Shown in pieces: positions 3,083-28,707 of a stretch of 51,275 nt of DNA. A program made the translations under genes and the position numbers. The notes beneath the pieces were generated by a model. It had not been told where the DNA came from, ran no database searches, and saw only the letters and a list, made by a program, of their open reading frames with translations. How positions within the stretch are numbered: the stretch's first letter is position 1; each line of letters opens with the position of its first letter. The stretch spans positions 1 through 51,275 of the IMG/VR virus record IMGVR_UViG_3300010397_000016; one strand, written 5' to 3'. The stretch comes from a virus (lineage: Duplodnaviria > Caudoviricetes).

Positions 3083-3104
3083 AATGAAATCCTTTCCCGG
3101 TACT

Positions 3105-3132
3105 ATAATAATGACAAGAAATATATTGTCAA
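3105..3132 (-). promoter_or_regulatory. Candidate sigma70 promoter for the HNH gene
   Basis: Minus strand TTGACA-N16-TATTAT about 20 nt upstream of the ATG at 3082. Confidence 0.5.
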
Positions 3133-3147
3133 ATTTGGATATTTATA

Positions 3148-8855: not shown

Positions 8856-11800
8856 CAGATGCAGAAGAACAAACAGCCGATATAGCCCCTGGGGTTGCTC
8901 GGCTGAATGCTTTATCGCAGGGTGGTTTCAATACGGATGAAGTGAATGAATACCGCACGCGGGTATCCGGGCAGATGGCTGGCGCCGGATTTAACGATGA
9001 CGAAATCAATAAATATTGGGGTGTGAAGACGCCGAATACAGACAAGGTGAAGGATATTGTCAGCCAGACAGGCGATGCTTCACCAGGCAATCCCCAGATG
9101 CGCAGTGAGTTAATGAATTCCTATGAGCGTGGGGAAACCAGAAACCCCAGCGAATTTACCAAGAGCGCCACAACCACGCTGCAGGATGTGCTGAAGACCA
9201 CGGGAAGCACGCTGGCAAAAGATGAAGCCTATCTGCTCACGTCGACACCGGCTTCGCTGGTTAGTGATCTGGTACAGGGAACCGTCAATCTGCCGGTGCA
9301 GGGTGCCACCAGGCTTGCCGGTAAGGCATACGAAGCAGCCGGCGGCGAACTCAGCCAGCCAGCGGCAGAAGCGCTGACACAGGGCATACCGGAATTCGGA
9401 CAATCACCTGCTCACACAGCGCTGCGTGAGGTAGCGGATAAGGCACTTGATTATCAGCCAGAGACCGTTGCCGGAAAAGTCACAGAAAGCAGCTTAAAGG
9501 CTGCTCCCTTTATTGCCGGTGGCGAAGGCACAGCAATCCGTAAGGCTATAGGTACACTAGCATCAGGCGGCGGCGCGGTAGCAGCCAGTGAGACCGCCAA
9601 GGCGCTTGGACTGGATGAGCGTGCGCAGGAAGCGGCGGCAGCGGTAGGCGGCGCACCAGGTATGATATTCGGCGCTACCACGGGCGGCGAAGGCGCTACA
9701 AAGCGAGGCTGGGAAGAACAGCCAAAAGCACAGGACTTTGTTGATGCCGCGGCGGTTACGAATGGTAAGGATGCTGAAGCTGAAGTTTCGCAGGTATTGC
9801 GTAACATCTACCGTGAAACGGGAATTACCCCTACGCAGGTAGTGGCGGAAGCAAAGATCAATCCTACCGTGGCGCAGGACTTGGCGGCCGGCCATATACC
9901 GGAAATATTTCAGCCTGCAAAGCCTGCTGAAAATCCTGCACCGGAACCCGTAGCACAAGCCGGCAATGAAGCCGTGGCACCGAAAGTGGGAAACTCTGCC
10001 TTCGAAATGCTTAACCCTACCGACCTGAAACTCGATCCGAAACGCTTCCAGTATAAGGAAGCCGATGAGAAAGGCGTTACCGGCGCGCTGCAGGGAACCG
10101 ATATATGGGAGCCGACACTGGCTAACCCGATCACCGCCTGGCGGGATAATAATGGCGATACGTTCGTTGTGAATGGTCACCAGCGCACTGACCTCGCAAA
10201 CCGTGCAGTGTCTGCGGGTCAGGAAGGCGTGCAGGTGCCAGCCCGTGTATTCAATGAAGCTGATGGCTATACGCCGGAATATATGCGCGTGCTCGGAGCG
10301 CGCCAGAATATCGCGGAAGGCTCCGGTACCGCCATTGATGCCGCTAAGATCATGCGCGGACCGGCCATACCCGATAGCATGCGCCTTCCAGAACTTCCCC
10401 CAAAGAGCCAGCTTGTCCAGCAGGCCAATGGTCTTGCGGCGCTGGGTGATGATAGCTTTGGCATGGTGGTCAATGGCGTGGTGCCTTCCGGTTATGCCGC
10501 CGAGGTAGGCAGGGCAATATCCGATCCCAAGGAGCAGCTGGCTGCCATGGATGTGCTGGCAAAGACCCAGCCGGATAATGTTGAGCAGGCACGCAGCATT
10601 GTGCAGGATGTGAAGAACTCAGGCTTCCTTCACGGTGACCAGACCAGTTTATTCGGAGATGAACACATCGCACAGACGGTTTTCGCAGAGCGCGCGCGGG
10701 TTCTGGACAATTCCCTCAAGCAGTTGCGCAAGCTGAAGTCCACCTTCAATACCGCCGTCACGCAGGAAGGCGCTTTGACTGAAGCCGGAAATGTGCTATC
10801 AAAAGAAAAAAATGTAACGGCAAAGGCTCAAAATGAAGACCTCCTCACGGCTATCCAAAATGACGCCACGCGCAAAGGGCCCATCTCCGATGCCCTCAGT
10901 GACGCCGCCCGACAACTCAAGGACGGCCAATCCATCGCCGCTGTCACCAAGCAGTTCATCGCCCGAGCCCGCGAGCTTAACGCCGGAGAAGGACGTGGAC
11001 AATTACAACCAGGCGCTGCTGCTGGCAGCCATGAACCTGCGGCAGAAGGCAGCGCAGTAGAAGCTAAATTTCAAAAGCCTAAAATTGCTGATATTACTAC
11101 ACCAGAATTCAATAAATGGTTTGGAGACAGCAAAGTAGTAGATGAAAGCGGGAAACCTCAGGTTGTCTATCATGGTACAGATAAAAATTTCCAAGCCTTT
11201 AATCCAAAAAAAGGCGCGCAGCAAATAATATGGTTCACTTCGGATAGAGCAGCCATAGAGAATGGTGAAGTCGGTGCTGCTGGTAAAGGCAGAATAATAG
11301 AGATGTACGCCGCTCTTAAAAATCCAGCAGGATGGAAAGAATATGAAAAATTCGGACTTTCCGAACTTGAAGCGCGTGGCTATGATGGCGCTATATTGCC
11401 AGAAAAAGATGGTACATTTGTAGGTTTTGCTTTCGAACCAAATCAATTGAAATCTATCTATAATCATGGAACTTTCGATGCGGAAAACAAAAAGTTGATG
11501 TTTTCTCGCCAAGGTGAAGCCACAACTTCAATTCCCGATGATGCAATCCATGTAGCGCCTGGGCTTGCCGGTGTTCCCACGGAAGCCTATACCGCCAAAG
11601 AAGCCGAAATTGTGAAAGCGGTAAATGCCGAACTTACAAAGCTGCTGGGCGGCAAAGGTGATGTTGGCGTCTTCAAGAAATTGTTCTCTACCGGTGAAGC
11701 GGGCAAGCCCGGCGAAGTGGAAGGCTATGCCAACCGTCGGCGCCTCTCCAACGGTGAAGTCCGCTATGTTGTCAATTACGCTCTGTCTGCCGGTGATGTC

Positions 11801-14800
11801 AAAGAAACCGCTCGTCATGAGGTCGTGCATGCGCTGCGCAAGACGCTGACGCCCGATGAATGGTCTACGCTTGAGCAGGCTGCCAAGGATGGCGACTGGA
11901 TAGGCAAGCATAATGTGGAGAGCCGCTGGGATGACTTGAACAAGGTACAGCAGCTGGAAGAAGCCATTGCCGAAGAATTCTCGCGCGGGCGCGCGGACAA
12001 ATTCCAGTCACTGCCGGCTATCATCCGACCCATATTTGAGAAAATGCAGCAGTTTATTGATACTGTTGCAGATAAGGCACGCAAGATATTCGGCGGCGCG
12101 GTGACGGCAAAGGATGTATTTTCCCGCATTGAGAGCGGTGAAGTTGGCGGCCGCCCGGTACCGGGAAGCGCCGAAGCAGAAGCATCTGGCAAGTTTGCCT
12201 TCCCGAAGGATACCATCCTCGGCAAGATCAGCATCGGCGGCAATGAAGCACCGAAGGAAAAGCTATCATGGAATGACTTCTATAAAGCCGCGGTAGATCG
12301 CCTCGATCCTGTCCGACGCGTGGTAGATAGCATGAAGAATGGCAATAATGCCACCGCTATGGAAAATGCCTATAAGCTGCTGCGCAATCTTGCCGGCAAC
12401 TATGGCCGCGCCCAACAGTTCATTGAAGGTCATACCTTTGACTTCGACACGTACAAAAACACGGGGAAGTCACTGAAGGAAATCCTGAAGCCGGTTGCCA
12501 AGGATATGAACGGCCTGCGGGAATATGCAGTATCCCGCCGTGCGCTGGAATTGGAAGCGCGCCAGATAAAACCTTTCGGTGATGATCCGAACGCCGCCAA
12601 ACTGATGGCAGATGCAAAGCAGGTTATTGCCAAGGGCGCTGCGAAGTATGAGCCGATATTCAAGGAGCTCAATACCTATCAGGCGTCATTGCTGAAATAC
12701 ATGAAGGATGCAGGTATCCTGACCGATGAGCAGGTGAAATCCATGAGCGGGGCCAATAGCGCTTATGTACCTTTCTACCGTGTCATGGATGATGATGCCA
12801 GTGTGGGGCTTGCAGGTGGCCAGGTGAAGAACCCGATCAAGCGTATCAGAGGATCTGAACGTGACATTATCGATCCGATTGAAAGCATCGTGAAGAACAC
12901 TTTTTCTTATATCTCCATTGCCGAGCGCAACGCCGCGGTAAAGTCATTCTTTGACCGGGCCAGCAAGGAAGCAAACCCTGCCGATTATTTCGAGAAGCAG
13001 GCACCGCGCATTACCCCTACGAAGGTGAGCGAAGCGGAGATGGACAAATTCCTTGCCAGCCAGGGTATCACCGGAGTGCCACAGGATACACTGACGGTAT
13101 TCCGCGCCATGCGCACGCCGCTTGCCAAAGACGAGGTAGGCTTCTTCGATAAAGGGAAGTGGACGGTGCTGAAGGTAGACCCGGATATTGCCGAAGCATT
13201 CAATGCGATCCCGCGCGGCGCGCATGGTGCGCTGTTCAAGATGCTGCAGGTGCCGACAAAGATGCTACGCTATGGTATTGTGTCGCCGGAATTCATCCTG
13301 CGCCATCTGGAGCGTAATACCCTTTCCGCCACGGTCATCGGGGAAAAGGGTATGGTGCCATTCGAGAACCTGTATAAAGGTCTGTTCTCCTATCTGAAGA
13401 AGGATGCATGGTACGAAGACTGGCTGAAGTCCGGTGGCAAGGTATCGTCATTATCTGGCTTGAGCCGTGATGACGTGGTGGACCAGGTGCGCCGCCTGAC
13501 AAAGGAAGAACCGGCCACAAATTATCTGGGCAAAGCATGGAATGTGGTACGCTCACCCTTTGAGGCAATTCATGCCTTTCAGCAGAACCTTGAGAATATC
13601 CAGCGCCTCGGTGCCTACAAGCGCGCTATCGATGGCTTGAACATCAATAAGGAAAGCATCATCAATTCCGGCCACTATGCCAGAAATGTGGCACCCGACC
13701 CTTCCCGCATCGGTAGCCAAACCCGCTCATGGAACTCTCTCACTGCGCTGGCAAATGCAGAAATACAACATACTGCGCAGCTGGTGGACGCGCTGCGCTC
13801 ACGCCCGCTTCCGACCTTGGCAAAGGGTTTTGCTCTTATCACCTTGCCGACCATGTTAAACTGGGCGTTAAATCACAATAATCCGGCCTATCAGGAAAGC
13901 CCGGCATGGGAACGTGATGCCTTCTGGATTGTGCCGGCAGGGCAATACACGCTACGTGTTCCCAAGCCATTCTTGATGGGCTTCATGTTTGGCACTGTGC
14001 CAGAACGCCTGCTCGATCTGGTATCGGGAAATGATAAGCACGGCAAAGGAGTTGCCGAAGGTATCAAGGATATGTTTGAGCAGGCGCTGCCTAACGTGAT
14101 ACCGAACGCACTTATGCCGGTGATGGAGCAGATGACGAATTACAGCATGTTCCGGGCAAAGCCTTTGGTACCTAATCACCTGATGCAGGAGCTTCCAGAA
14201 TACCGCTACAGTGAATATACCAGCGAGTTGACCAAGGCGGCCGGACACCTTCTGGGGAAAGTTCCTTATCTGAAGGATACCTCTATGGCTTCCCCGATGG
14301 TTATTGATAATTACCTGAGACAGTGGACCGGCGCGCTTGGCGGTTATGTGATGACTGCCGCTGACGCCTCGCTGCGCAAGGCCGGCGTATTGCCGGATCC
14401 TGTTCTGCCCACGAAGTCACTGGCGGACATACCCTTCATAAAGGCCTTTGTTTCCCGCTATCCGTCCGCCCAGGCACAGAGCATTCAGGAATTCCAGAAT
14501 AGCTACAATCAGATGAAGCAGTATCAGAATACCTTCAAAGACTTGATAAAGCAGGGTGAGATGCAGCAGGCGCAGGACTTGATGACCAATAACCCCACCC
14601 AGTTTTACAAGCTGGATAGCATAAATAAAACCATCAGTGAGCAGAATAAATTCATCCGCCTGATTTACAAAAACCCGCAAATCGGCGGAGATGAGAAGCG
14701 CCAGATCATCGATGCCACCTATTATCAGATGATAAGCCTTGCGAAGCAGGGTAATGAAATGCTCGATCAGTTGCATCAGGACAAGGGTGCAACCAAGCAC

Positions 14801-14803
14801 TGA
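8852..14803 (+). CDS. Large internal virion (gp16-like) polyvalent protein: ParB-like, ART-PolyVal, zincin metallopeptidase-like and LPD38-like domains
   Basis: DPKRFQYK...FVVNGHQR...NIAEG (about 10030-10620); FNKWFGDSKVVDESGKPQVVYHGT...LKNP...GYDG...F.PNQLKS (about 11100-11510); RHEVVHA...EEAIAEEF (about 11810-11980); YQESPAWERDAFWI...RVPKPF (about 13890-14000). Confidence 0.8.
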   Translation: MTDAEEQTADIAPGVARLNALSQGGFNTDEVNEYRTRVSGQMAGAGFNDDEINKYWGVKTPNTDKVKDIVSQTGDASPGNPQMRSELMNSYERGETRNPSEFTKSATTTLQDVLKTTGSTLAKDEAYLLTSTPASLVSDLVQGTVNLPVQGATRLAGKAYEAAGGELSQPAAEALTQGIPEFGQSPAHTALREVADKALDYQPETVAGKVTESSLKAAPFIAGGEGTAIRKAIGTLASGGGAVAASETAKALGLDERAQEAAAAVGGAPGMIFGATTGGEGATKRGWEEQPKAQDFVDAAAVTNGKDAEAEVSQVLRNIYRETGITPTQVVAEAKINPTVAQDLAAGHIPEIFQPAKPAENPAPEPVAQAGNEAVAPKVGNSAFEMLNPTDLKLDPKRFQYKEADEKGVTGALQGTDIWEPTLANPITAWRDNNGDTFVVNGHQRTDLANRAVSAGQEGVQVPARVFNEADGYTPEYMRVLGARQNIAEGSGTAIDAAKIMRGPAIPDSMRLPELPPKSQLVQQANGLAALGDDSFGMVVNGVVPSGYAAEVGRAISDPKEQLAAMDVLAKTQPDNVEQARSIVQDVKNSGFLHGDQTSLFGDEHIAQTVFAERARVLDNSLKQLRKLKSTFNTAVTQEGALTEAGNVLSKEKNVTAKAQNEDLLTAIQNDATRKGPISDALSDAARQLKDGQSIAAVTKQFIARARELNAGEGRGQLQPGAAAGSHEPAAEGSAVEAKFQKPKIADITTPEFNKWFGDSKVVDESGKPQVVYHGTDKNFQAFNPKKGAQQIIWFTSDRAAIENGEVGAAGKGRIIEMYAALKNPAGWKEYEKFGLSELEARGYDGAILPEKDGTFVGFAFEPNQLKSIYNHGTFDAENKKLMFSRQGEATTSIPDDAIHVAPGLAGVPTEAYTAKEAEIVKAVNAELTKLLGGKGDVGVFKKLFSTGEAGKPGEVEGYANRRRLSNGEVRYVVNYALSAGDVKETARHEVVHALRKTLTPDEWSTLEQAAKDGDWIGKHNVESRWDDLNKVQQLEEAIAEEFSRGRADKFQSLPAIIRPIFEKMQQFIDTVADKARKIFGGAVTAKDVFSRIESGEVGGRPVPGSAEAEASGKFAFPKDTILGKISIGGNEAPKEKLSWNDFYKAAVDRLDPVRRVVDSMKNGNNATAMENAYKLLRNLAGNYGRAQQFIEGHTFDFDTYKNTGKSLKEILKPVAKDMNGLREYAVSRRALELEARQIKPFGDDPNAAKLMADAKQVIAKGAAKYEPIFKELNTYQASLLKYMKDAGILTDEQVKSMSGANSAYVPFYRVMDDDASVGLAGGQVKNPIKRIRGSERDIIDPIESIVKNTFSYISIAERNAAVKSFFDRASKEANPADYFEKQAPRITPTKVSEAEMDKFLASQGITGVPQDTLTVFRAMRTPLAKDEVGFFDKGKWTVLKVDPDIAEAFNAIPRGAHGALFKMLQVPTKMLRYGIVSPEFILRHLERNTLSATVIGEKGMVPFENLYKGLFSYLKKDAWYEDWLKSGGKVSSLSGLSRDDVVDQVRRLTKEEPATNYLGKAWNVVRSPFEAIHAFQQNLENIQRLGAYKRAIDGLNINKESIINSGHYARNVAPDPSRIGSQTRSWNSLTALANAEIQHTAQLVDALRSRPLPTLAKGFALITLPTMLNWALNHNNPAYQESPAWERDAFWIVPAGQYTLRVPKPFLMGFMFGTVPERLLDLVSGNDKHGKGVAEGIKDMFEQALPNVIPNALMPVMEQMTNYSMFRAKPLVPNHLMQELPEYRYSEYTSELTKAAGHLLGKVPYLKDTSMASPMVIDNYLRQWTGALGGYVMTAADASLRKAGVLPDPVLPTKSLADIPFIKAFVSRYPSAQAQSIQEFQNSYNQMKQYQNTFKDLIKQGEMQQAQDLMTNNPTQFYKLDSINKTISEQNKFIRLIYKNPQIGGDEKRQIIDATYYQMISLAKQGNEMLDQLHQDKGATKH

Positions 14804-14885
14804 TTAAAAAAATATACCCAAAAAGATTTATATGCTATAAAACATCTGCATATACCCTTGCTCCCGAGGAGGGCAAGAGGACTGG

Positions 14886-16517
14886 ATGTTAAGCAAAATA
14901 TTGGGAAACCATTTACGCAAAGCAGCGGCTTTCCTCGCTTCTCTCTGTATTCTCTTCGCCTGCACCGAGCCAGCCTATTCGCAAACAAACTATCTGGATC
15001 GCTTCGCCGGTGCTGTTCTTGCTTCATTCGGTAAGCAGCCAGTAGACGCTGCCACCACCACCAACATCACACTATCTGGATATCAGACTGTTGATGGCGT
15101 AAACCTGAACGCCGATTATTTACGCATATTGGTTAAAAATCAGACCGACCCCACCACAAACGGCATATATACAGTATTTTCCGGTGCATGGATCCGCTCG
15201 AGCGATTTTTCTGGACCCAGCGGCACTGTTAAGGGACAGGCCATTTATGTTACCGGTGGCACGCAGGCGGGCCTATGGACGGTAAGCACGGCAAACCCGA
15301 TACAGATTGATCATACGGGTGGCCAGTCAACGAGCCCCAGCAATATAACTTTCACGTATAATCCCTTTCTCATAAATTCAGTTACTTCATCCACCTCAAA
15401 TACAGTTGGCACGGGAAGTAAGACATTTTCTACAAACAGCGTATTGCCTGTAACAGTCGGGCAATATGTGCTTGTCACAGAAACTTCTGCACCATCGAAT
15501 TATGTATTCGGGCAGGTGACAAGTTATTCAGTCCCCTCGCTGGTGCTCAACGTCACCGTGACCGGCGGTTCAGGTACCCATTCTGATTGGACATTAAGCA
15601 TTTCCGGACCACCAGGACAGGCCGGCGCTACCGGTGCAACCGGTCCTGCCGGACCGACTGGACCGGCAGGTTCTATGGGAACGACAGGATCGCCCGCCAG
15701 CGGTAATCTGACAAAATTCTCCGGCGCGACCACAGTTACAAATGCGGATCTTACCGGTGACATTACTACCTCGGGTACAGTGGCAACGACATTGGCAACT
15801 GTGAATTCGAATGTCGGTTCCTTCACCAACGCCAATATCACGGTCAATGGAAAAGGGCTTATTACCGCCGCGAGTAACGGCGGTGCTGCTGGTGTAGTAA
15901 CTGTAAAATCCCAAGTATTTACCTCTTCCGGTACTTATACGCCATCCACTGGAATGCTCTATGCCGTGGTAGAGGTGCAAGGTGCCGGCGGTGGCGGCGG
16001 CGGTACTGCTGTAAGCAATTCAGTTGGCAGCGGCGGCGGCGCTGGCGGTTATTCACGAAAAACATTATCAGCAGCAACTATAGGTGGGTCACAATCTGTC
16101 ACAGTTGGTAACGGCGGTGCTGGTTGCGCAACGAGTGTGACCTGTACAGGTGGCACGGGTGGCAGCAGTTCTTTCGGAGCACTTCTATCAGCAACAGGTG
16201 GCGCCGGTGGTACTGCAAATTCTCCAGTACCTGTGGCACCGGCAACGGTAGCCGGAGGCAATCCTGGCACCGGCTCTAGTGGAAATGTCAATGTAACAGG
16301 CGGCCCTGGGGGCAGTGGATTATGGTTGTCATCGGGTGCTCAAAAAGGTGGAGATGGCGGGACTTCATATTTTGGCGGCGGCGGCGTAGGCGGTAATACT
16401 GGTGCAGGCGGCGGCGGAAATGCCTATGGCTCCGGCGGTGGAGGCGGTAGTCAGACATTGAATGGCGGCGATGGTGCTGGTGGTATCGTAATTGTTAGAG
16501 AATTCTGCTCACAGTAG
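14886..16517 (+). CDS. Tail fibre-like protein with collagen-like Gly-X-Y stretch, Gly-rich C-terminal domain and N-terminal signal-like sequence
   Basis: ATTTNITLSG.QTVDGV...RILVKNQT...NGIY module; TSSTSNTVGTGSKTF...DWTLS module; GPPGQAGATGATGPAGPTGPAG; VFTSSGTYTP...GAGGGGGG domain. Confidence 0.75.
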   Translation: MLSKILGNHLRKAAAFLASLCILFACTEPAYSQTNYLDRFAGAVLASFGKQPVDAATTTNITLSGYQTVDGVNLNADYLRILVKNQTDPTTNGIYTVFSGAWIRSSDFSGPSGTVKGQAIYVTGGTQAGLWTVSTANPIQIDHTGGQSTSPSNITFTYNPFLINSVTSSTSNTVGTGSKTFSTNSVLPVTVGQYVLVTETSAPSNYVFGQVTSYSVPSLVLNVTVTGGSGTHSDWTLSISGPPGQAGATGATGPAGPTGPAGSMGTTGSPASGNLTKFSGATTVTNADLTGDITTSGTVATTLATVNSNVGSFTNANITVNGKGLITAASNGGAAGVVTVKSQVFTSSGTYTPSTGMLYAVVEVQGAGGGGGGTAVSNSVGSGGGAGGYSRKTLSAATIGGSQSVTVGNGGAGCATSVTCTGGTGGSSSFGALLSATGGAGGTANSPVPVAPATVAGGNPGTGSSGNVNVTGGPGGSGLWLSSGAQKGGDGGTSYFGGGGVGGNTGAGGGGNAYGSGGGGGSQTLNGGDGAGGIVIVREFCSQ

Positions 16518-16530
16518 ACGAGAAAGTAAG

Positions 16531-16962
16531 ATGGAACAGACTTCAGATGTAATTACGGTAGGGCAGGTACTTGGTTTGGCTGTGACGTTAGGTGGCACCA
16601 TACTTGGATTGGCCGGCGGACTGTTGCTTTATATGCTTAAGAAACGCGACGATCGTATCGATGAAAACGATAAAGAAATCGATGCGCTCGAAAAACGAGT
16701 TAACGAAGGCGAGAAAAAGGTGCTGGAAGACAAACTGCAAGCTGCAAAGGAATATGCCACCAAAGACAATGTGAGGATGTTGTTTCAGGAAAGCCAGCAA
16801 GCAAACCGCGATATGGGACAACGTCTGGAAAAGCAGATTGATGAGACGAAGAAAGAAGTGAAGGACACTCAGACAAAGATAGAGAGCCAGATAAACGACA
16901 CAAAAAATAAGATCGAAGCAATGCAAACCGCCGTTCTTACCGAACTGGCAAAAAAAACCTGA
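16531..16962 (+). CDS. Single-pass membrane protein with long coiled coil (holin- or spanin-like candidate)
   Basis: N-terminal hydrophobic helix (VLGLAVTLGGTILGLAGGLLLYML) followed by KKR and a heptad-rich charged region; start reassigned to ATG 16531. Confidence 0.6.
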   Translation: MEQTSDVITVGQVLGLAVTLGGTILGLAGGLLLYMLKKRDDRIDENDKEIDALEKRVNEGEKKVLEDKLQAAKEYATKDNVRMLFQESQQANRDMGQRLEKQIDETKKEVKDTQTKIESQINDTKNKIEAMQTAVLTELAKKT

Positions 16963-16974
16963 TAGGGGAAAATT

Positions 16975-19900
16975 ATGCGCAACTATAACCGTATATTCCG
17001 GAGTTTATTTTTAACACTGCTCCTTGTGATATTGTTCACTGTGCACCGTGATGAAGCACTGGCGTGGCCTCCCAATGTAGGTGGTCCATATAACGCCAAT
17101 GGCGGTGCCAGTGGCAGCAGCGGTGGTACCAGTACCACGGGTGCTAACAGTGTTATGCTCGATCCGCGCAATTACGGCGCAAAATGTACCGGTGCCTATG
17201 GTGCTTCAGGCGTTGTGCTATTCAATGGTGGTGGCAGTGGCTGGAATGTTGGTGATAAATTTATGCTGCAGGATCAGCAACTCGAAGCCCATATGCGTGG
17301 TGGTGCCAATGCTATAGGCCGTGTTACTGGTGTAAGTTCTGGCGCGATCACTACTTTCGTCATGGAAAAACCTGGCAGCGGATATTATTTTAATGCTCTG
17401 TGGGGTACCCCGATAACTGGTACCGGTTCTGGTGCATCCTTTAATGTCAATGGCCTCTCCACGCCACCTTCAGCACCTTCAACCACCTTGGCTGTGGGTG
17501 GTGCGGCTACCTGTAGCACCTCCGGTTCTACCATCTGCGGTGGCGCTTATCAGGTTAATGATCTGTTCGCAGTTCCCAATCCAGCCCGGGACGGAAATTA
17601 TATGGTTGGGAGGGTAACTGGAGTTAGCGGTGGCCGTGTCACTACGTATACCATTCTTAATCCGGGTGGAAATTATGCCATTGTCAGTGCCGTACCAGCC
17701 ACTACGATTACCGGTTATGGCAAGGGGCTTACCATCAATGTGACCTCCACCACCAGTGCTAATGGCACGTGGGATGATACCTATGGTATTACCGCTGCGG
17801 AAGCCGCCGCATCTGCTCAAGGGCAGGGCGCTGCTGTCATAATGCCGGATAATTGCTGGGCAGCGAACCTGCCGGCTGTATCTGGTACATCGCTTATCGG
17901 TCAGCTTGAAGCGCCTAATTACGGTTACGGAAATGTACCATCGACCTTGCAGCCTTCTGGTGGCCCGCATCTTTTCATTATCGGAACGCCGAGTTTCGGT
18001 ATCGATCTTAATAATGCTGGTGATTTTGCAATGCGCGGATTTGAGGTGCGCGGTTATACCGGCGGTAATTTCGGTGCCAGTACGACCTGGGATAGTACCG
18101 CCTGCATAGGTACATTTGCCGGCGCGGGTACCGGAGGACTTTCCATTATCCAGGCGGAGCATATGAGCGCCAAAAGTTGCAAAGCGGGTATTGGTTCACC
18201 GGATGGTACTGGTGCGTTTATCTTCGCCAAATTCTTCAGTAATGATTGGGGTGCTAATCAGGTAGGTATTTATGGTCCTTTTTCCGATCTTCTGAGTGCT
18301 GGTGATACCATTCCCTCTACCGGTACAGCGATATGGCTATCGAGCAGTGCTGGGGGTTTAGCGCGCATTGAGCATCCACGTATCGAATATGCCACCGATT
18401 ATGGTATTCGTCTCGATGGTTTCGGTTCGCTGCAGGCGTCGATGACAGATGTGCAGGTTGACCGAGTAGGGCGCTGCGCAGTGTATGGTAACGGAACCCA
18501 GCAAATCAATATTGAGGGCGGTTCGCTAAAAGGTGCTGGCTTGGCCGGAACACTTACTGTGACGGGTGCGGCTTCAGGCACGGCAGGTGTGGTACGCCTT
18601 ACTGTTACCGGGTTCGGGTTTAATCCCAGCGGCGGATCTTCCGCTACATCAGGCCTAACCACTGGTGATATCGCCAATGTATCTGGCGTGGGCGGCACGA
18701 CAGAAGCCAATGGTAATCAGCGCACCATCACCGTTGTGGATAATACGCATATAGAATTGCAAGGGACTACTTTCGTCAATGCCTATACCAGTGGCGGATT
18801 GGTTGCTGTTAACGGCAAGGATGCGTATATCTGCCTTAATAACACATCGGATTTTCATAGCGACAATGTAGGCTTTTATGGTTATAGCGCTGGCACACCG
18901 CTGGCGGCCGCCACCGTGATTGATGCAACAGGATCGACACTGATATCGATGGATAACGGTGCTGCCAATACTGGCAATGGAAATTCAGGCGGTTGGCAGC
19001 AGGCGGTTGCTAACTGGCATAATAGCGGTAATACGGCACCAGCGAATACGCTTATCACTATTCCCGGTACGAATACGCTTACTGCTGTTGATTATGGTAA
19101 TTTCACCACTTCACTGACTTTGCCAAAAGGCACGACGGGTCAGGAACCGACATGCAACACGGCGGCCGCTGGTTCTATTCGTTATAATACCACTGTGCCG
19201 CAGACGGAAGTATGTAGCGCTGGCAGCTGGACGGCTCTGTCATCGGGCGGCGGTACCGTCAATGCCGGCACCATTAACCAGGTCGCCTATTATGCCGCGA
19301 CAGGCACAACGGTAGGCGGTGACGCGGATCTACTCTTTGATGGCAGCAATCTGACGCTTGGTGCCACTACGGCCGCAACCGGCGCGATGACGATCAACAG
19401 TAACGGCGGTGCCGGGCTTACCGTCATATCGAGCAATGCGACCCAGGCAGGCATTAACATCGATGCTGGCCCTGGCGGTGGTCATAAGTTCAGCTTCTTT
19501 GCCAGTGCCAATAATCCTGGCCTGTTTGGCTTTTACGATACTACGAGCGCTGCCTTTGTCTTTGGCGCAAGCACAAGCACGGTACAGCTGGGATCTGGCA
19601 ACACCTTCAGCTGGAACTCGACTGTCAATCCTACCACGGCACCCGATCTGGCTATATCACGTAGCGCCGGCGGTGTATTGGCGGTAGGAACAGGTACGGC
19701 TGGCAATACCACAGGTAAGATAAAAACCGCCGCCTATATGTCTGTCGGCACCAAATTCACCGCCTCAGGATGCAGTAATTCTGGTACGGTTGGTGGTGCT
19801 ACTGCAGGCCGGTTTACCTCTGGTACTACCGGTGCCTGTACAGTTACCATCACCATGGGCGATACTGCTACCGCACCCAATGGCTGGTCATGTACGGCAA

Positions 19901-20022
19901 GCGATCAGACAACGCCGGCTAATATTTATGATCAGACAACGGGAGGCTCAACAACCACCGCCGTGTTGACAGGTACGACTGTCACAAATGACGTTATAAG
20001 CTTCTCTTGCATCGGGTATTAA
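16975..20022 (+). CDS. Tail spike/fibre-like protein with probable beta-helix domain and N-terminal signal peptide
   Basis: DPRNYGAKC...WDDTYGITAA beta-helix entry motif; two GRVTGVS.G repeat modules; LPKGTTGQEP...GSIRYNT module; C-terminal APNGWSC...FSCIGY module. Confidence 0.7.
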   Translation: MRNYNRIFRSLFLTLLLVILFTVHRDEALAWPPNVGGPYNANGGASGSSGGTSTTGANSVMLDPRNYGAKCTGAYGASGVVLFNGGGSGWNVGDKFMLQDQQLEAHMRGGANAIGRVTGVSSGAITTFVMEKPGSGYYFNALWGTPITGTGSGASFNVNGLSTPPSAPSTTLAVGGAATCSTSGSTICGGAYQVNDLFAVPNPARDGNYMVGRVTGVSGGRVTTYTILNPGGNYAIVSAVPATTITGYGKGLTINVTSTTSANGTWDDTYGITAAEAAASAQGQGAAVIMPDNCWAANLPAVSGTSLIGQLEAPNYGYGNVPSTLQPSGGPHLFIIGTPSFGIDLNNAGDFAMRGFEVRGYTGGNFGASTTWDSTACIGTFAGAGTGGLSIIQAEHMSAKSCKAGIGSPDGTGAFIFAKFFSNDWGANQVGIYGPFSDLLSAGDTIPSTGTAIWLSSSAGGLARIEHPRIEYATDYGIRLDGFGSLQASMTDVQVDRVGRCAVYGNGTQQINIEGGSLKGAGLAGTLTVTGAASGTAGVVRLTVTGFGFNPSGGSSATSGLTTGDIANVSGVGGTTEANGNQRTITVVDNTHIELQGTTFVNAYTSGGLVAVNGKDAYICLNNTSDFHSDNVGFYGYSAGTPLAAATVIDATGSTLISMDNGAANTGNGNSGGWQQAVANWHNSGNTAPANTLITIPGTNTLTAVDYGNFTTSLTLPKGTTGQEPTCNTAAAGSIRYNTTVPQTEVCSAGSWTALSSGGGTVNAGTINQVAYYAATGTTVGGDADLLFDGSNLTLGATTAATGAMTINSNGGAGLTVISSNATQAGINIDAGPGGGHKFSFFASANNPGLFGFYDTTSAAFVFGASTSTVQLGSGNTFSWNSTVNPTTAPDLAISRSAGGVLAVGTGTAGNTTGKIKTAAYMSVGTKFTASGCSNSGTVGGATAGRFTSGTTGACTVTITMGDTATAPNGWSCTASDQTTPANIYDQTTGGSTTTAVLTGTTVTNDVISFSCIGY

Positions 20023-20117: not shown

Positions 20118-20432
20118 ATGGGCAAACTCGTAATATCCGGCACGCTTAATCTCTTCCTCGTCTTGCTGTTGATTGTTGTATCCCTCGATATAAAGGAAAG
20201 CTATAAGATCATCGACAGCCTGAAGGCGCAGTTGGTCACTACCGGCGACAACAGCATAAAATATTATAACGAAGCGAAGAACAAGGATATCGAGCTTCAG
20301 AAATGCAAGGGCACGTACGATCCTAATAAACCGGTTACTACGGGTATAGACAGGACGGCACCCGATGACGGTGAAATCACTCCTGCAGAACCTCCTTCTT
20401 CCTCTGCGCCAATGCCAGTGCCGGGCTCATGA
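20118..20432 (+). CDS. Membrane-anchored coiled-coil protein (i-spanin-like candidate)
   Basis: N-terminal TM, helical middle with one Cys, Pro-rich tail; first gene of the lysis cassette; AGGAG RBS. Confidence 0.45.
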   Translation: MGKLVISGTLNLFLVLLLIVVSLDIKESYKIIDSLKAQLVTTGDNSIKYYNEAKNKDIELQKCKGTYDPNKPVTTGIDRTAPDDGEITPAEPPSSSAPMPVPGS

Positions 20433-20620
20433 TGGAACGCTGCGCAGATTGTAAGTTCGCTTTAGCCTTCGACAATAACAAAGTCCATTGCCGGCGCTTT
20501 CCGCCAGCAACATCTTTGGTAAGGATTAATGAGGAAGGTCATGCCACTATCTCCTGCAACTTCCCTGTCATGGCAGATCATGGCTGGTGCGGAGAGTTCC
20601 AGCTCAAGGTGTTAAACTGA
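20429..20620 (+). CDS. Small Cys-rich (putative Zn-binding) phage protein
   Basis: CADC...CRRFPP...FPVM...WCGEF pattern; translationally coupled at both ends. Confidence 0.7.
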   Translation: MMERCADCKFALAFDNNKVHCRRFPPATSLVRINEEGHATISCNFPVMADHGWCGEFQLKVLN

Positions 20621-21090
20621 TGGTTACCTCACCCAGATCAATCAATGATACTGGGCTTAACATTATCAAGAAACGTGAGAGTTGCCGCCTAATACCATAC
20701 CAGGATCAGAAGGGTATCTGGAGCGTGGGTTATGGTCATACTAAGGGAATAACTTCTACCACAAAGCCATGGACACAGCAGCAAGCCGATGCTGCTCTCA
20801 AACAGGACGTACAAGATGCGTGCGATGCTATTACCCATAACATTCGGGTGAAGCTTACCGATAACCAATTCTCAGCACTGGCCAGCCTTGTTTATAACAC
20901 TGGACCAGGTGTGCTCTACCAGACGCTGGGTGACCTGATTGATGCACAGCGGTGGCAGGCGGCCGCCGATGAATTTCTGAAGTGGGATCATGTGCGTATC
21001 AAAGGTGTTTTGGTAGAAAGCAATGGCCTGCTCGAGCGTCGGAAGGAAGAACGCGCTCTGTTTCTGACGCCGGATAATACCACCGCATAA
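20620..21090 (+). CDS. Endolysin, GH24 (T4/P22-type) lysozyme
   Basis: RESCRLIPYQDQKGIWSVGYGHT (E-x8-D-x5-S/T); LTDNQFSAL.S..YN.G; GLLERRKEERALF; start reassigned to ATG 20620. Confidence 0.92.
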   Translation: MVTSPRSINDTGLNIIKKRESCRLIPYQDQKGIWSVGYGHTKGITSTTKPWTQQQADAALKQDVQDACDAITHNIRVKLTDNQFSALASLVYNTGPGVLYQTLGDLIDAQRWQAAADEFLKWDHVRIKGVLVESNGLLERRKEERALFLTPDNTTA

Positions 21091-21115: not shown

Positions 21116-21129
21116 ATGATTTAATTCAT
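21116..21129. promoter_or_regulatory. Operator-like palindrome (ATGATTWWAATCAT family, one mismatch)
   Basis: ATGATTTAATTCAT in the intergenic gap after the endolysin gene. Confidence 0.45.
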
Positions 21130-21181
21130 GTACTCGCTGAATGCGAAGTTTCACTTTAACCATTATCCGAAGGAGAATTTT

Positions 21182-21571
21182 ATGAATGACAAAACCGATA
21201 AATCCGCTGCTGATGCTGGGGGCGATCTGAAGAACCTGACGGCTACTATTCACCAGCAGATACAGCATGCGCTGAAACTGCCGCTTCTGACTTATCTGAA
21301 GGCCATAAAGGCTAACCCAACCCTCGCAACTATCCAGGCTGGCGTGCCTGCGATTGCTGCCGAAGGTCTAGCCGCGGCACCGGCTCTGCAGAGCGAGATC
21401 ATCACTGATGTGGCTGATCTGCTTATCCAGCATCTGGAAACGCCTACTGCGGAAACCAGTGCCGTTGTTTCTGCTATGCCTGCCGCCGTTGGCGCAGACG
21501 CAGAGGATAAAGCCGCTGTGGGTAACGCCAACACTGCCGCTGCCGGCAATGCTGGCCCGGCAAAGGCATAA
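21182..21571 (+). CDS. Hypothetical Ala-rich protein
   Basis: AAGGAG RBS before ATG 21182. Confidence 0.7.
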   Translation: MNDKTDKSAADAGGDLKNLTATIHQQIQHALKLPLLTYLKAIKANPTLATIQAGVPAIAAEGLAAAPALQSEIITDVADLLIQHLETPTAETSAVVSAMPAAVGADAEDKAAVGNANTAAAGNAGPAKA

Positions 21572-21695
21572 CCGCCATTGCCTGAAGCTTCTCGCCGCAT
21601 GCCTGATTTTATCTGGTTGCGGCGGGAATGCTTATTATGTACACTGTGCTACTAACATGCCTTGCATTGTTCATGTGTCCATATCATTAAATTGA
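21549..21695 (+). CDS. Small lipoprotein (o-spanin-like candidate)
   Basis: MLARQRHNRHCLKLLAACLILSG/C has a basic n-region, h-region and canonical LSGC lipobox; overlaps the end of the upstream gene. Confidence 0.5.
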   Translation: MLARQRHNRHCLKLLAACLILSGCGGNAYYVHCATNMPCIVHVSISLN

Positions 21696-21702
21696 GGCTA
21701 CC

Positions 21703-22365
21703 ATGGGACTGACCGACCTCGATTGTGCAATCCTCCTCCAGCAGCAGTATGATGGCGCGCTGGGTATCTTCGATAAACAATATAGCATCCGTGGCGTTGA
21801 CTTCGCAGTGAAGACGTATAAGGACTGCGTGGTCTTTGCGTTCGAGGGAAGCCATAATCTTGCCGACTGGCTGAGCAACTTTGAAGCCGCCATGATCCGG
21901 CCGGCGAAGTTCGGCGGCGTAGAGCTCGGCTTCTATACCGGTATTCCAGAATGCTCAGAAGTGGCCAAGGAATGGCTAGAGCCTGGCAAGAAGGTCTGGT
22001 GCATAGGACATAGCCGCGGTGCTGCCCATGCGCATATATTTGCCCGAGCGCTTATTATAGATGGCGTCCCGGGTCCGGACGTACACCGTGTGGTCTTCGG
22101 CTCCCCAAATCCGGGTGACACTATCTTCGCCGCCGGGCTGGTTGAAAGTCCGGTTCGGTCATATCGCAATTATCGCAATATACTCGAGCAGGATTTTGTC
22201 TGTGCAGTGCCGGAGCCGCTGCCGGTGGTTGCTCCTTATTGCCACCCGGGCGAACGTATCATCATCGATGTGCCAGGGCCACTCAGCGATCCGTGGGGAC
22301 CGCTGCGGCGCCACCATCTATACCTCTATCATAACTACCTTGTCAGGGAGAAAGACAATGGCTAA
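21703..22365 (+). CDS. Class-3 lipase (alpha/beta hydrolase)
   Basis: FEGS...DW..N oxyanion/lid region; GHSRG nucleophile elbow; FGSP; DFVCAVP; C-terminal His. Confidence 0.85.
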   Translation: MGLTDLDCAILLQQQYDGALGIFDKQYSIRGVDFAVKTYKDCVVFAFEGSHNLADWLSNFEAAMIRPAKFGGVELGFYTGIPECSEVAKEWLEPGKKVWCIGHSRGAAHAHIFARALIIDGVPGPDVHRVVFGSPNPGDTIFAAGLVESPVRSYRNYRNILEQDFVCAVPEPLPVVAPYCHPGERIIIDVPGPLSDPWGPLRRHHLYLYHNYLVREKDNG

Positions 22366-22990: not shown

Positions 22991-23281
22991 TTAATTGCTG
23001 ATTTGAAAACCATTGTTATCTAGATCAACTTGTGATCCTTTTCCAACATCTATGAGGTAACTTCTATTTTCATCACAATCTATGCCTTTGATATACTTTC
23101 CATCACAACGAGCACCGTGCTTATCATCATAATGAAACTTGATGCATCCCTTGCTTTCGAAGCATTTATTGTCGATCTTTATTTGGGTTGTATCGTAATG
23201 ACCATTTGTACTTATATGTTCTTCGGCTCTTATTGCAGTGGCCATAAATATGGTGATCAGAATTATTAATTTTACCATCAT
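22991..23281 (-). CDS. Putative exported small protein
   Basis: MMVKLIILITIFMATAIRA/EE Sec signal; four Cys; AT-rich. Confidence 0.6.
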   Translation of the reverse strand: MMVKLIILITIFMATAIRAEEHISTNGHYDTTQIKIDNKCFESKGCIKFHYDDKHGARCDGKYIKGIDCDENRSYLIDVGKGSQVDLDNNGFQISN

Positions 23282-23304: not shown

Positions 23305-23415
23305 TTATTTAGCAAGCCTACTAGCGATTAAAGCTAGATCGAAATGCATAAATATCATTATTACGGCTATATAAACTAATGCACATATTATAAATCCCGC
23401 TTGTTTTTCTGTCAT
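23305..23415 (-). CDS. 36-aa single-TM microprotein (not in ORF track)
   Basis: MTEKQAGFIICALVYIAVIMIFMHFDLALIASRLAK; GGAGGAGG RBS; ATGA coupling to the upstream ORF. Confidence 0.6.
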   Translation of the reverse strand: MTEKQAGFIICALVYIAVIMIFMHFDLALIASRLAK

Positions 23416-23555
23416 GCTATAGCCCTCCTCCGGCTCAGCCATTTGTTAATTTCGGAGTGATTGATATTCGGCAACGGTAATGTTTTGAAGATATTCTCTA
23501 CTGTCTCCCTACAATGACCGCATGCCCATGAAGAATATTCAACATGATCGCGCAT
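23412..23555 (-). CDS. 47-aa protein with CxxC (not in ORF track)
   Basis: MRDHVEYSSWACGHCRETV...; TGATG and ATGA coupling on both sides. Confidence 0.5.
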   Translation of the reverse strand: MRDHVEYSSWACGHCRETVENIFKTLPLPNINHSEINKWLSRRRAIA

Positions 23556-25316: not shown

Positions 25317-25550
25317 TCATACCCTCTGGTATATTTTTCCGTCGATTTCCTCGAAAGAAGGGAAAGTGCTTTTTATCTTTTCCCCGATTTTAATCAGCGC
25401 TTCATCCAAGGCATTTTCCATCGTAGTTTTGGTATCTAACTGGTGCAGATTTGTATCATTCAAATCCTCACTTTTTAACGAATAGAATAGAGACTGTTTT
25501 TTGCGGTTACAGATTATATGTATCTTAAATTTCGTCATGGCTTCTTCCAC
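25317..25550 (-). CDS. Hypothetical protein
   Basis: Tiled in the operon; the ATG at 25538 is a likely start. Confidence 0.5.
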   Translation of the reverse strand: MEEAMTKFKIHIICNRKKQSLFYSLKSEDLNDTNLHQLDTKTTMENALDEALIKIGEKIKSTFPSFEEIDGKIYQRV

Positions 25551-25744
25551 CAGTATTGTTTGGTGCTATCTATAGAAATGTTCTTTATAAAAAATCCTGG
25601 AAGTAGGAAGAAAATAATTACGAACCAGAAAAGGAATGCACAGGATTGACAATGGTTACGTTGCTCAAGAATGACAAATTCCACCGCCACTCCAACTATG
25701 CCCATGGAAGCATAGAATATTAAAAAGTCCCAGATCATCAACAT
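25535..25744 (-). CDS. Small two-TM membrane protein
   Basis: Two hydrophobic segments flanking CQSC. Confidence 0.5.
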   Translation of the reverse strand: MLMIWDFLIFYASMGIVGVAVEFVILEQRNHCQSCAFLFWFVIIFFLLPGFFIKNISIDSTKQYWWKKP

Positions 25745-27061: not shown

Positions 27062-28315
27062 TCACTCTCTGACTATATTTATTAATAGGCCGGCGTCCTT
27101 TCGTAAGCGGCGTTCGGTAATGTTAATATACTCCTGGCTTAATTCTATGCCGATGCAGTCGCGCTGTAGGCGATCTGCCACAAGGCCAGTGGTACCAGCA
27201 CCAAAAAAAGGATCGAGAACAATGCATCTTTTCTTTGGAATTGTATCATCACCGCATTCACATGAAGCGTCCCAATTCAAGGTAGAAACAACAGACATAT
27301 ATTCTTCACCTTGTGCACGCGCTTTCTGTCTAAGCTTTGCCAATCTCTCTGCTGTGCTACCTTTTGGATAAGAAGTTTTAGTTTCTACTTCATCCCGGTC
27401 CCAAATTTCTCTTTCCATAATTCTTTTAATGGGAGCGCCACATTTATTGCAGCACCCTTTTTCGCTGGTTCCTGCTTTAATGCAAGGCTCTATTAACTGG
27501 GGGGGGAACGTTGCAAAATGCGCTTCTGAAAACGGCTGAGTAGCCACCTCCCAGACACTACGTTTATTGCGTTTTTCTATGCGCAAACATACGCTCTCAG
27601 CGAAAGAAGTGTTCTGCTTTGAACCAGGCGCATTGGCAAAGGCCTTCGTGCTGCCTTTTACTACTGCCTTTAAGTTGCCATTTGTTTTTCCACCGGCATT
27701 TGCTCTTGCTGATCCGATCTGCTTTTCAACGTCTTGCGCCATGCGTGCATGGGTATTGGGCGAAACTGCTTCCGCTATGGCGTCAACATCGAAATAATAT
27801 CGGCTGGACTTGGAGAGCAGGAAGATTTGCTCATGCGATTTTGTGCATCTATCCTTTACGCTTTCTGGCATGGGGTTTGGCTTTGACCAGATGATCTCTT
27901 GCCTCAGATACCAGCCGTCATCTTGCAGGGCAAAGGCAAGTCGCCATGGCATACCCATGAGATTTTTTGATTTTATTCCTATATTGTTTTTTCTGCGCCC
28001 AATACTGGTATTTCCATGCAGTGACTTTACATGCTTTCCTCCAGTGCTTCCTCCCCATTTTCCCTCATTGGAATAACTATCACCGATATTGACCCAGACA
28101 GTTCCGTCATCACGCAGCACGCGCCGTACTTCGCGGAATACTTCAACCATCTTCTGTACCCATTGCATAGGGGATGCTTCCAAGCCGATCTGACCATCAA
28201 CGCCATAGTCGCGTAATCCCCAATACGGCGGAGAGGTGACAACGCAGTGAACGGATTTATCCGGCAGTGTCCTCATCATCTCGATACAGTCGCCATGTAG
28301 GATGCGGATTGTCAT
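27062..28315 (-). CDS. Amino (N4-C/N6-A) DNA methyltransferase, beta class
   Basis: [12 protein letters not shown] catalytic motif, [19 protein letters not shown]-terminal [14 protein letters not shown] motif; Cys-rich insert (CCNKC...CECG); start reassigned to ATG 28315. Confidence 0.93.
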
Positions 28316-28707
28316 TGTACGGTTCCTCCTGCAGGCCAATGCCGGGAAATCTTAATCAGTCTGCCCTTCAGTTCCCGCTTACTGTGTACCTTGCTGATGC
28401 CCTCGATATAGTAATTCCATGCAAGGTTCTTCACTGCGTCTTCCTCTTCCTGCGTAAGGCTGAAGCTGGTACCGGTCAGTGCCTTGCGCAGCGCCTGGTC
28501 AATGTACATATTGAAAGTGGCTGTACCTTCCATCAGGCCTTCGGGGAAAGGGTTCTCCACGAAGTCCCGCAGCAACTCCACCACCAGCGCCTGGATGCAC
28601 TGCTCGGTCAGCATATCGCTGCCATGCATCTGCACTGACTGGACAGGTTCCCCCAGATCCCAGCGGGCAATATATTCAGAGCACTCTCTTATGCGGTTGA
28701 TAGTCAT
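28312..28707 (-). CDS. Hypothetical protein
   Basis: ATGA-coupled on both sides. Confidence 0.65.
   Translation of the reverse strand: MTINRIRECSEYIARWDLGEPVQSVQMHGSDMLTEQCIQALVVELLRDFVENPFPEGLMEGTATFNMYIDQALRKALTGTSFSLTQEEEDAVKNLAWNYYIEGISKVHSKRELKGRLIKISRHWPAGGTVQ

Follow-up and report, generated by a model that had tools for sequence, protein, structure and literature searches.

Why should the fibre and spike proteins of a tailed phage begin with what look like export signals? The question is raised by two genes, here called gpA and gpB, in a Caudoviricetes virus held as IMG/VR record IMGVR_UViG_3300010397_000016, whose entire sequence of 51,275 bp we analysed (hereafter the window). An earlier note on this DNA had proposed that both proteins are exported and that this would amount to a non-standard receptor-binding system. 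Comparative evidence lends support to that proposal, as gpA is the orthologue of the canonical tail fibre of its podophage family with a leader added, and leaders seem to be a property of the whole receptor-binding module.

Predicted signal peptides of gpA and gpB

Both open reading frames (ORFs) were confirmed together with their only plausible starts (Table 1), and the leaders described earlier, with n-, h- and c-regions and the cut sites AYS/Q and ALA/W, held up. The N-terminus of gpA reads MLSKILGNHLRK / AAAFLASLCILFA / CTEPAYS and then Q, with an uncharged h-region of 13 residues and a predicted signal peptidase I (SPase I) cut before Q33; that of gpB reads MRNYNRIFRS / LFLTLLLVILFTV / HRDEALA and then W, again with an h-region of 13 residues and with its predicted cut before W31. 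We sought the signal-peptide layout as an h-region of about 7-15 residues, a polar c-region and small residues at -3 and -1, and classified leaders here and below with our own crude rule on hydrophobicity, charge and AxA. By inspection and by this crude script, both leaders fit the Sec/SPase I layout of a positive n-region, an uncharged h-region and small residues at -3/-1, and no other 15-residue window of either protein is as hydrophobic as the leader. The positive n-region and the net negative stretch past the h-region together predict an N-in, C-out topology. In the structural models, a helix (residues 2-23 in the AlphaFold2 model of gpA, 4-22 in the gpB model) is followed by a disordered segment (23-45 and 24-58, respectively).

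Neither leader contains the twin arginine of a Tat signal. The earlier note had also pointed to a lipobox-like LFAC in gpA. Taking a lipobox as [LVI][ASTVI][GAS]C closing the h-region, we found that of 10 leader-bearing orthologues gpA alone has one; the F-T-I-C of P0020 does not fit the pattern, and the other eight have no cysteine there. As LFAC is not conserved, SPase I is the likelier enzyme for gpA and we rejected the lipoprotein reading.

The ribosome-binding sites (RBSs) that had been noted before both genes correspond to purine-rich, RBS-like stretches (Table 1). Within codons 6-82 of gpA there is no ATG, GTG or TTG in frame, and no Shine-Dalgarno sequence stands ahead of the CTG at codon 37. 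In gpB the next in-frame ATG is codon 61 (position 17155), right where the conserved tailspike body begins (M-LDPRNYGAKC), and it too has no Shine-Dalgarno sequence before it. Alternative starts that would skip the leaders were rejected, as none in either gene comes with an RBS. The leaders appear to be more than chance, a judgement that rests on their conservation among homologues.

gpA and the canonical tail fibre of its family

A marker for the gpA subtype, (Y/F)-x-DR(F/Y)-x-G, picked out 11 proteins among the best 126 database relatives. Nine of these carry leaders of 26-37 aa that are mutually unrelated in sequence and yet all stop right before the (T/N/S)Y-x-DRF of the N-terminal domain (N-domain). 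The cut site is AxA/Q or AxS/Q in eight of the nine and AIS/D in P0012, and the gpA leader aligns with the AxA/Q-type leaders of P0008, P0009, P0015, P0018, P0020, P0113, L203 and L206. The two leaderless proteins begin MTTTYLDRY and MATTYLDRF, which is to say at the predicted mature end.

In 18 IMG/VR loci of the podophage family, a gene 8-10 kb downstream of that for the nozzle protein codes for the same N-domain. In 16 of them (13 distinct sequences) the fibre in this slot is leaderless and starts with the domain itself (e.g. MPATSTDRL); the other two, G610 and G611, carry leaders ending ASA/Q and AYS/Q. The shared N-domain and the shared slot in 18 loci are the grounds on which we regard gpA as an orthologue of the family's canonical virion fibre. 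Moreover, because the domain heads the leaderless fibre in 16 of the 18 loci, residues ~33-165 of gpA are likely its virion or tail anchor. The earlier claim that a recognisable tail-anchor domain is missing thus stands in one respect, since no Pfam match to the T7 gp17-type tail-fibre N-domain (Phage_T7_tail, which we take to be PF03906) was found in gpA or gpB at E<=0.01, and gives way in the other, as gpA does have a domain that heads the slot fibres.

A maximum-likelihood tree of 32 N-domains, rooted at the midpoint, placed all 10 leader-bearing domains within one clade of 12 (support 86/87, inner node 100/96), and the 2 leaderless YLDRF proteins were nested as a pair inside this clade (support 100/93). 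Two state changes explain the distribution of leaders, and none of 500 label shuffles gave as few. On the simplest reading, the leader would have been gained once, long kept and cleanly lost once, which would mean that the mature protein serves the same function whether or not it is made with a leader.

The rest of gpA is fibre-like, as had been claimed. In the AlphaFold2 model (mean pLDDT 82) the beta-rich part of the N-domain spans residues ~50-165. The N-domain matches PHROG tail-fibre and virion-protein families and, by sequence, a capsid decoration protein (PDB 9nx3_A, E 2.3e-6), and an alignment of relatives shows it to be well conserved while the C-terminal tips are swapped. The small barrel that follows has weak matches (VIA Z ~6) to barrels of phage depolymerases and baseplates. 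The glycine-rich tip belongs to Pfam PF21722 (E 1.6e-11, 45.1 bits vs a cutoff of 24.3) and matches the Pam3 fibre 7ypx_A (Foldseek E 1.5e-8; VIA Z 23.6, root-mean-square deviation 2.0 over 191 residues, 34% identity) and the Bxb1 tail-tip protein (VIA Z 17.7), both of them fibres seen in solved virions. A complex prediction with two adaptor chains and three copies of gpA residues 33-170 scored 0.02 vs a mark of 0.32 and weighs neither way. N-domains of the gpA type were also seen in larger proteins: near residue 770 of ~1100-aa proteins with a pilin-like N-terminal transmembrane (TM) segment in three contigs of Rhodocyclaceae metagenome-assembled genomes (MAGs; L118, L124 and L129), and at residue 450 of a 1304-aa signal-peptide protein in a Mucilaginibacter MAG (L097).

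gpB, its family and its cysteine tip

The gpB model has a mean pLDDT of 66, with residues 270-660 mostly >85. The conserved body begins DPRNYGAKC, and its Foldseek matches are CBA120 TSP3 and TSP2, Kp9 gp42, the Sf6 tailspike and AlgE4; for the beta-helix against CBA120 TSP3/TSP2 and Kp9 gp42 the probability is 1.00 and E 1e-5 to 1e-3, with low TM-scores (0.15-0.23). Given this tailspike beta-helix in gpB and the Pam3-type tip in gpA, both are receptor-binding-type proteins.

A word-indexed search returned five gpB relatives. P0006 (43% identical to gpB) has a leader, MKYLLFFLLLTICSPAFA, at the same place, and the four closest leaderless homologues (54-61% identical) have 40-110 non-hydrophobic residues ahead of the conserved body. 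Mature gpB lacks this N-terminal extension, and to that extent the earlier claim of a missing tail anchor remains standing for gpB.

An exhaustive HMMER search with gpB gave 1545 representative clusters at E<=1e-3. Most of the 150 homologues listed match the C-terminal part only, and our leader survey covered 147 of them (P0001, P0005 and P0006 set aside). A hydrophobic N-terminal window above our own threshold was present in 108 of the 147; by the crude rule, 95 leaders are SPase I-like, 13 are lipobox-like and 16 are hydrophobic but unclassified, 9 proteins have nothing and 14 are start-less fragments. The earlier note had asked whether homologues keep the signal, and the 108 gpB homologues and the nine gpA-type proteins suggest that many do. 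Leaderless homologues, which it had named as a warning sign, do occur (2 of 11 gpA-type proteins and 16 of 18 slot fibres), the two gpA-type ones starting at the predicted mature end.

Scanning IMG/VR for the tip domain yielded 22 loci, 18 of them flagged for a leader; the remaining four comprise a 5' fragment, a borderline case, a locus whose leader comes after what is probably a wrongly called start, and a single leaderless locus. The tip profile recovered 5 of 5 viral records as a positive control and found nothing in 602 bacterial genomes, 301 sampled from the phylum of the Mucilaginibacter MAG and 301 from that of a Xanthobacteraceae MAG. We conclude from these surveys that the gpB family is large, virus-associated and, as far as predicted leaders go, mostly leader-bearing. 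By tblastn, gpB had no match in 50,697 cultured-phage records, and it had none in PHROG; a JGI metagenome scan gave only two distant tip-domain loci, and an atlas search with the tip reached best scores of 0.86-0.89, which we treat as a lead only.

The aligned tips show invariant cysteine and glycine columns, and all 74 sequences with the FxxSGC motif have exactly four cysteines in their last 100 residues. In 4 of these 74 tips (P0221, P0241, P0246 and P0260) one cysteine is missing and another stands ~25 residues earlier. Such a shift is typical of paired disulfide partners and is in keeping with folding of the domain outside the cytoplasm. An unusual cysteine content of the whole proteins was considered and rejected (0.9% and 1.4%), the tip domain alone being distinctive.

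Leaders across the receptor-binding module

Leaders are also found on the neighbours of leader-bearing fibres. In G610, the genome whose adaptor is nearest to that of the window (59% identity), five further ORFs with leaders, of 164, 671, 167, 472 and 89 aa, come after the leader-bearing fibre, and the 472-aa protein has Peptidase_S74 intramolecular chaperone and tail-spike PHROG matches. In G611 two such ORFs, of 357 and 582 aa, come after the leader-bearing fibre, and the 582-aa protein joins a ConA-like lectin domain to a GDSL esterase domain. In the window (G000), gpB is the leader-bearing neighbour of the leader-bearing gpA. No leaders occur on the ORFs flanking the fibre in seven genomes whose fibres are leaderless (G001, G612, G613, G615, G616, G618 and G619). 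This pattern indicates that the leader goes with the receptor-binding module as a whole. Among the 30 distinct ORFs of the window that were scanned, none besides gpA and gpB matched a fibre or spike family.

Leader-bearing fibre-like genes occur beyond this family as well, in three unrelated complete or near-complete phages (G002, G003 and G004) and as adjacent pairs in G002 and G003. In G003 (L161, a 58-kb phage), glycosyltransferase-like genes lie upstream of the leader-bearing fibre pair, and in a 502-aa ORF of the head-tail block (27346-28854) a signal-like leader (MKRTLLLLLLANPMFA) likewise comes after an internal start. The 164- and 167-aa leader proteins of G610 are paralogues interleaved with its large leader-bearing fibre genes (L227, 892-1386 and 4369-4872), and they could be periplasmic fibre chaperones or adaptors.

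A possible route from periplasm to virion

The earlier note listed several fates for the exported proteins and chose none; our data favour an exported, virion-destined gpA and leave gpB either way. The account we put forward, tentatively and at somewhat short of an even chance, is that the receptor-binding module is exported by Sec, folds in the periplasm and joins the particles when the holin opens the inner membrane. gpA and gpB would both be receptor-binding proteins (RBPs) made as Sec pre-proteins, carried across the inner membrane by their leaders and trimmed by SPase I to mature ends at Q33 and W31. Folding and trimerisation of the fibres would follow in the periplasm, a compartment that would allow disulfides to form in the four-cysteine tip of gpB, while capsid and tail would be assembled in the cytoplasm without fibres. 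Once the holin opens the inner membrane late in infection, or at lysis, the compartments would mix; mature gpA would dock on the tail through its conserved N-domain, as its leaderless orthologues are presumed to do, and gpB would ride on gpA or on the tail, or be released free. The data would also fit a mixed outcome in which gpA docks and gpB goes free. The leaders, their conservation, the orthology and the module pattern are what we observed; that the proteins are exported, cleaved, folded in the periplasm and docked late is inferred. We favour a virion-destined gpA because it is orthologous to the canonical fibre, because its N-domain is conserved while tips are swapped, and because a nested lineage lost the leader alone and no other fibre gene was found among the 30 ORFs. 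Stated for a whole clade of tailed phages, in which the entire module would be sent through Sec, folded and disulfide-bonded in the periplasm and mounted on fibreless particles after the holin breach, the proposal is a conjecture that we hold possible but would not bet on.

A number of observations weigh against this account. Tailed virions are completed in the cytoplasm, we know of no tailed phage that adds fibres from the periplasm, and docking at lysis only looks inefficient. The N-domain is not always a tail anchor, as it is also found inside larger proteins and in one capsid decoration protein. G001 has a leaderless fibre in the canonical slot and a separate leader-bearing fibre-like gene pair elsewhere, so such proteins can be accessories. 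On the side of gpB, the mature protein is without the extension of its four closest leaderless homologues, and many relatives of its tip are only 175-450 aa, small for fibres. Whole-protein cysteine content is unremarkable in both gpA and gpB. Finally, the coherence of the module in leader-bearing genomes rests on three of them (G000, G610 and G611), and the N-domain tree is only midpoint-rooted with bootstrap values that are not fully settled.

Comparison with known systems

Canonical podovirus RBPs (T7 gp17, the tailspikes of P22, Sf6 and CBA120, and the Pam3 fibre) resemble gpA and gpB in their position after the internal-virion genes, and they share the layout of a conserved N-domain with exchangeable C-terminal tips. 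Unlike gpA and gpB they carry no signal peptide, and their assembly takes place in the cytoplasm. Among phage proteins that are exported, T5 Llp and Cor are envelope proteins that target the receptor of the phage itself; both are small lipoproteins with no relation to fibres, and neither is an orthologue of the virion fibre. T4 RI is reportedly a late phage lysis protein, Sec-exported or of the signal-arrest-release (SAR) type, that takes effect only when the holin fires.

Signal-peptide endolysins such as Lys44 of fOg44 are late phage proteins that are exported and act only after the holin fires (PMC8878798), and they provide a precedent for Sec-exported late proteins of a phage waiting outside the membrane. 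These endolysins and T4 RI are lysis enzymes or regulators, unlike gpA and gpB as putative virion components. In Bdellovibrio bacteriovorus, the surface-displayed MAT fibres start with a signal peptide and a conserved N-domain of ~130 aa and end in variable tips; some carry a Peptidase_S74 chaperone (PMC10769870), as does the neighbour protein in G610. gpA matches them in layout, with a signal peptide directly before a conserved N-domain and then a fibre. MATs, however, are chromosomal genes of a predator and act on its surface, whereas gpA and gpB are phage genes in the fibre slot. WceF of Pantoea stewartii is a Tat-exported, trimeric exopolysaccharide (EPS) hydrolase with a tailspike-like beta-helix that keeps a P22-type head-binding domain behind its cleavable signal (PMC7949094). 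As a bacterial protein encoded within an EPS gene cluster and exported by a Tat signal, it differs from gpA and gpB, which are phage-encoded and have no twin arginine. A survey of carbohydrate-active enzymes in soil prophages that used SignalP found signal peptides on 5% of the enzymes, with tail fibres excluded (PMC13507307). None of MAT, WceF and the signal-peptide endolysins is a virion fibre of a tailed phage. A full-text literature search, with subscription journals largely outside its scope, returned no report of signal peptides on the tail fibres of tailed phages.

Alternative fates of the two proteins

The exported proteins might never join the virion and act instead from the periplasm, from the surface or after release, a serious possibility and the main rival to the account above, even though we think the chances lean against it. 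As free depolymerases or adhesins they would mask or strip the receptor (superinfection exclusion, or protection of progeny from debris) or clear the matrix around neighbouring cells, and adsorption would proceed through the nozzle protein, which contains a large insert, or through another unrecognised protein. The established compartment barrier speaks for such a fate, as do the missing extension of mature gpB, the many short and leader-bearing proteins among the relatives of its tip, and the leader-bearing genes of G001 beside a leaderless canonical fibre. The beta-helix of gpB resembles depolymerising tailspikes as well as exported bacterial enzymes such as AlgE4, its gene lies past the TM/coiled-coil gene and adjoins the lysis genes, and WceF (PMC7949094) and the MAT fibres (PMC10769870) are known analogues. 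What this fate explains less well is gpA, which is orthologous to the canonical fibre in the same slot, combines a conserved N-domain with swapped tips in the manner of docked fibres, and belongs to a group in which a nested lineage lost the leader with the mature start unchanged; the phage would moreover be left without a recognisable fibre.

Two further explanations would keep gpA and gpB, in whole or in part, in the cytoplasm. Some depolymerase genes are known to use alternative starts to make both a soluble and a virion-bound product. Should export be inefficient or an internal start be used, some or most of each protein might likewise stay cytoplasmic and be built into virions, with the exported fraction serving a separate accessory role. 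The in-frame ATG at codon 61 of gpB, at the start of the conserved body, would give a leaderless product if used, and gpA-type proteins have L, M, V or I immediately ahead of DRF. We nonetheless consider this improbable: neither gpB codon 61 nor the gpA CTG at codon 37 has a Shine-Dalgarno sequence, gpA offers no ATG, GTG or TTG in codons 6-82, and a virion fibre would be burdened by a hydrophobic leader left uncleaved. There is similarly only a slim chance that the leaders are no export signals at all and instead tether the proteins to the cytoplasmic face of the membrane, serve as a handle for assembly or a chaperone, or result from mis-called starts. The alanine-rich h-region of gpA does somewhat resemble SAR segments. 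The charge pattern, however, predicts N-in, C-out; the AxA/Q site is conserved at a fixed distance from the N-domain; there are no alternative starts, and leaderless orthologues begin at the cut site; and the h-region of gpB is strongly hydrophobic.

Lysis region and genome setting

The ORF with a TM segment and a coiled coil that had been reported between gpA and gpB is indeed there (Table 1). Weak PHROG matches of its product include holin and Rz-like spanin, and similarly built ORFs sit after the fibre and before the endolysin in G613 and G616, so that it is probably a lysis-cassette (holin-like) gene. By BLASTP against the family loci, this protein and the 104-aa TM, 63-aa and 147-aa proteins had no matches. 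The lysis cassette of G613 contains a lipoprotein, as expected with a diderm host. In the window, an ORF at 21408-21695 (+), out of frame over the end of 21128-21571, has an internal Met, a lipobox LILSGC and a mature part of ~24 aa, and it could encode a small o-spanin-like lipoprotein; no clear spanin pair was otherwise found in the window. Directly after the lysis region lies a class-3 lipase/esterase-like gene (21703-22365, PF01764, E 2e-12).

Table 1. Positions of gpA, gpB and adjoining features in the window
Feature	Position	Strand	Basis
gpA RBS-like purine stretch, GAGGAGGG ... AAGAGGA	14866..14881	+	direct reading
gpA gene, 543 aa	14886-16517	+	ORF confirmed
gpA predicted leader, residues 1-32	14886..14981	+	n-region K4/R11/K12, h-region AAAFLASLCILFA, c-region ending AYS
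gpA conserved N-terminal beta-rich domain, residues 33-165	14982..15380	+	pLDDT >90; slot conservation in 18 loci; invariant alignment columns
gpA second small beta-barrel, ~residues 165-240	15381..15605	+	AlphaFold2
gpA low-confidence G-x-T / collagen-like linker, ~residues 244-333	15615..15884	+	sequence, AlphaFold2
gpA glycine-rich C-terminal tip of Pam3-fibre type, residues 339-543	15900..16517	+	PF21722, Foldseek, VIA
Small TM and charged coiled-coil protein, 143 aa	16531..16962	+	N-terminal TM segment, charged helical tail
gpB RBS-like AGGGGA	16964..16969	+	direct reading
gpB gene, 1015 aa	16975-20022	+	ORF confirmed
gpB predicted leader, residues 1-30	16975..17064	+	n-region R2/R6/R9, h-region LFLTLLLVILFTV, c-region HRDEALA
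gpB Gly/Ser-rich linker, residues 31-61, without anchor domain	17065..17157	+	alignment; pLDDT <50
gpB tailspike-like body, ~residues 62-700: two small beta domains, then right-handed beta-helix	17158..19074	+	model, Foldseek
gpB C-terminal fibre and tip module, residues 750-1015	19222..20022	+	last ~95 residues = four-cysteine tip; pLDDT <50
Downstream lysis region: 104-aa N-terminal TM protein, 63-aa Cys-rich ORF, GH24-type endolysin without leader	20118..21090	+	ORFs, domain matches

The window is a complete podophage genome. It is the entire record, a single contig whose ends overlap by ~123 nt, and IMG/VR-style tables list it with direct terminal repeats and 100% completeness. Near-identical DNA is present in soil and groundwater metagenomes from 2 studies, the soil runs possibly being the source of the record itself, and the metagenome/run search listed no RNA datasets holding a near-identical sequence. 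The late genes run from portal, scaffold-like gene, major capsid, adaptor (tubular A-like) and nozzle (tubular B-like, 926 aa) through three internal-virion proteins to gpA, and continue with the TM/coiled-coil gene, gpB, the 104-aa TM protein, the 63-aa ORF and the GH24 endolysin. By nozzle protein the closest cultured phages, Ralstonia C22/RpY1, BcepC6B-like and epsilon15-like, are only 23-27% identical, and all of them infect Gram-negative hosts. A scan with the window nozzle protein placed 62 IMG/VR loci in the same phage family (33-50% identical); a search of IMG/VR with the C-terminus of the giant internal protein returned no relatives.

That giant protein (8852-14803) is a 1983-aa polyvalent protein with matches to ART-PolyVal (ADP-ribosyltransferase, E 3e-16) and LPD38 (E 4e-38), and neither it nor the other two internal-virion proteins contains a cysteine. 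Between adaptor and nozzle, a 160-aa Cys-rich ORF at 2600-3082 (-) (MPKFYELTGKKFGKLTVIERG...) is endonuclease-like by sequence reading and has no Pfam match; a hydrophobic 180-aa ORF at 2606-3148 (+) was rejected as a membrane protein, being the shadow of this minus-strand gene. Just past the late genes there are a 96-aa Cys-rich protein with a signal-like leader (MMVKLIILITIFMATAIRA) and small opposite-strand TM ORFs (22991-23281, 23305-23442 and 25535-25744, all on the minus strand), which may be moron-like envelope proteins. The podophage family may be temperate, since two of its members (G614 and G615) carry a provirus label and RecT-like and exonuclease genes are present in the window. 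The flanks of the provirus-labelled G614 are phage genes, and no integrase was recognised in the window.

Implications

The orthologue of a canonical fibre and the receptor-binding genes beside it seem to have kept secretion signals over long evolution, in a group of viruses whose textbook assembly is wholly cytoplasmic. If the fibres do reach the virion, assembly would have a last step that is split between compartments and timed by the holin, a step of which the literature searched gave no description. If they stay off the virion, these phages would secrete depolymerases, adhesins or receptor blockers derived from fibres and would recognise the host by other means. Should Sec-routed assembly prove true, it would be common in uncultured soil and freshwater phages, judging from more than 1000 putatively leader-bearing relatives of gpB. 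Either outcome would alter how RBPs are called in viromes, and would bear on host prediction from tail proteins and on the engineering of fibres that need oxidative folding. The findings also suggest that phage fibres and secreted fibre adhesins of bacteria, MAT and WceF among them, may be linked by an evolutionary route.

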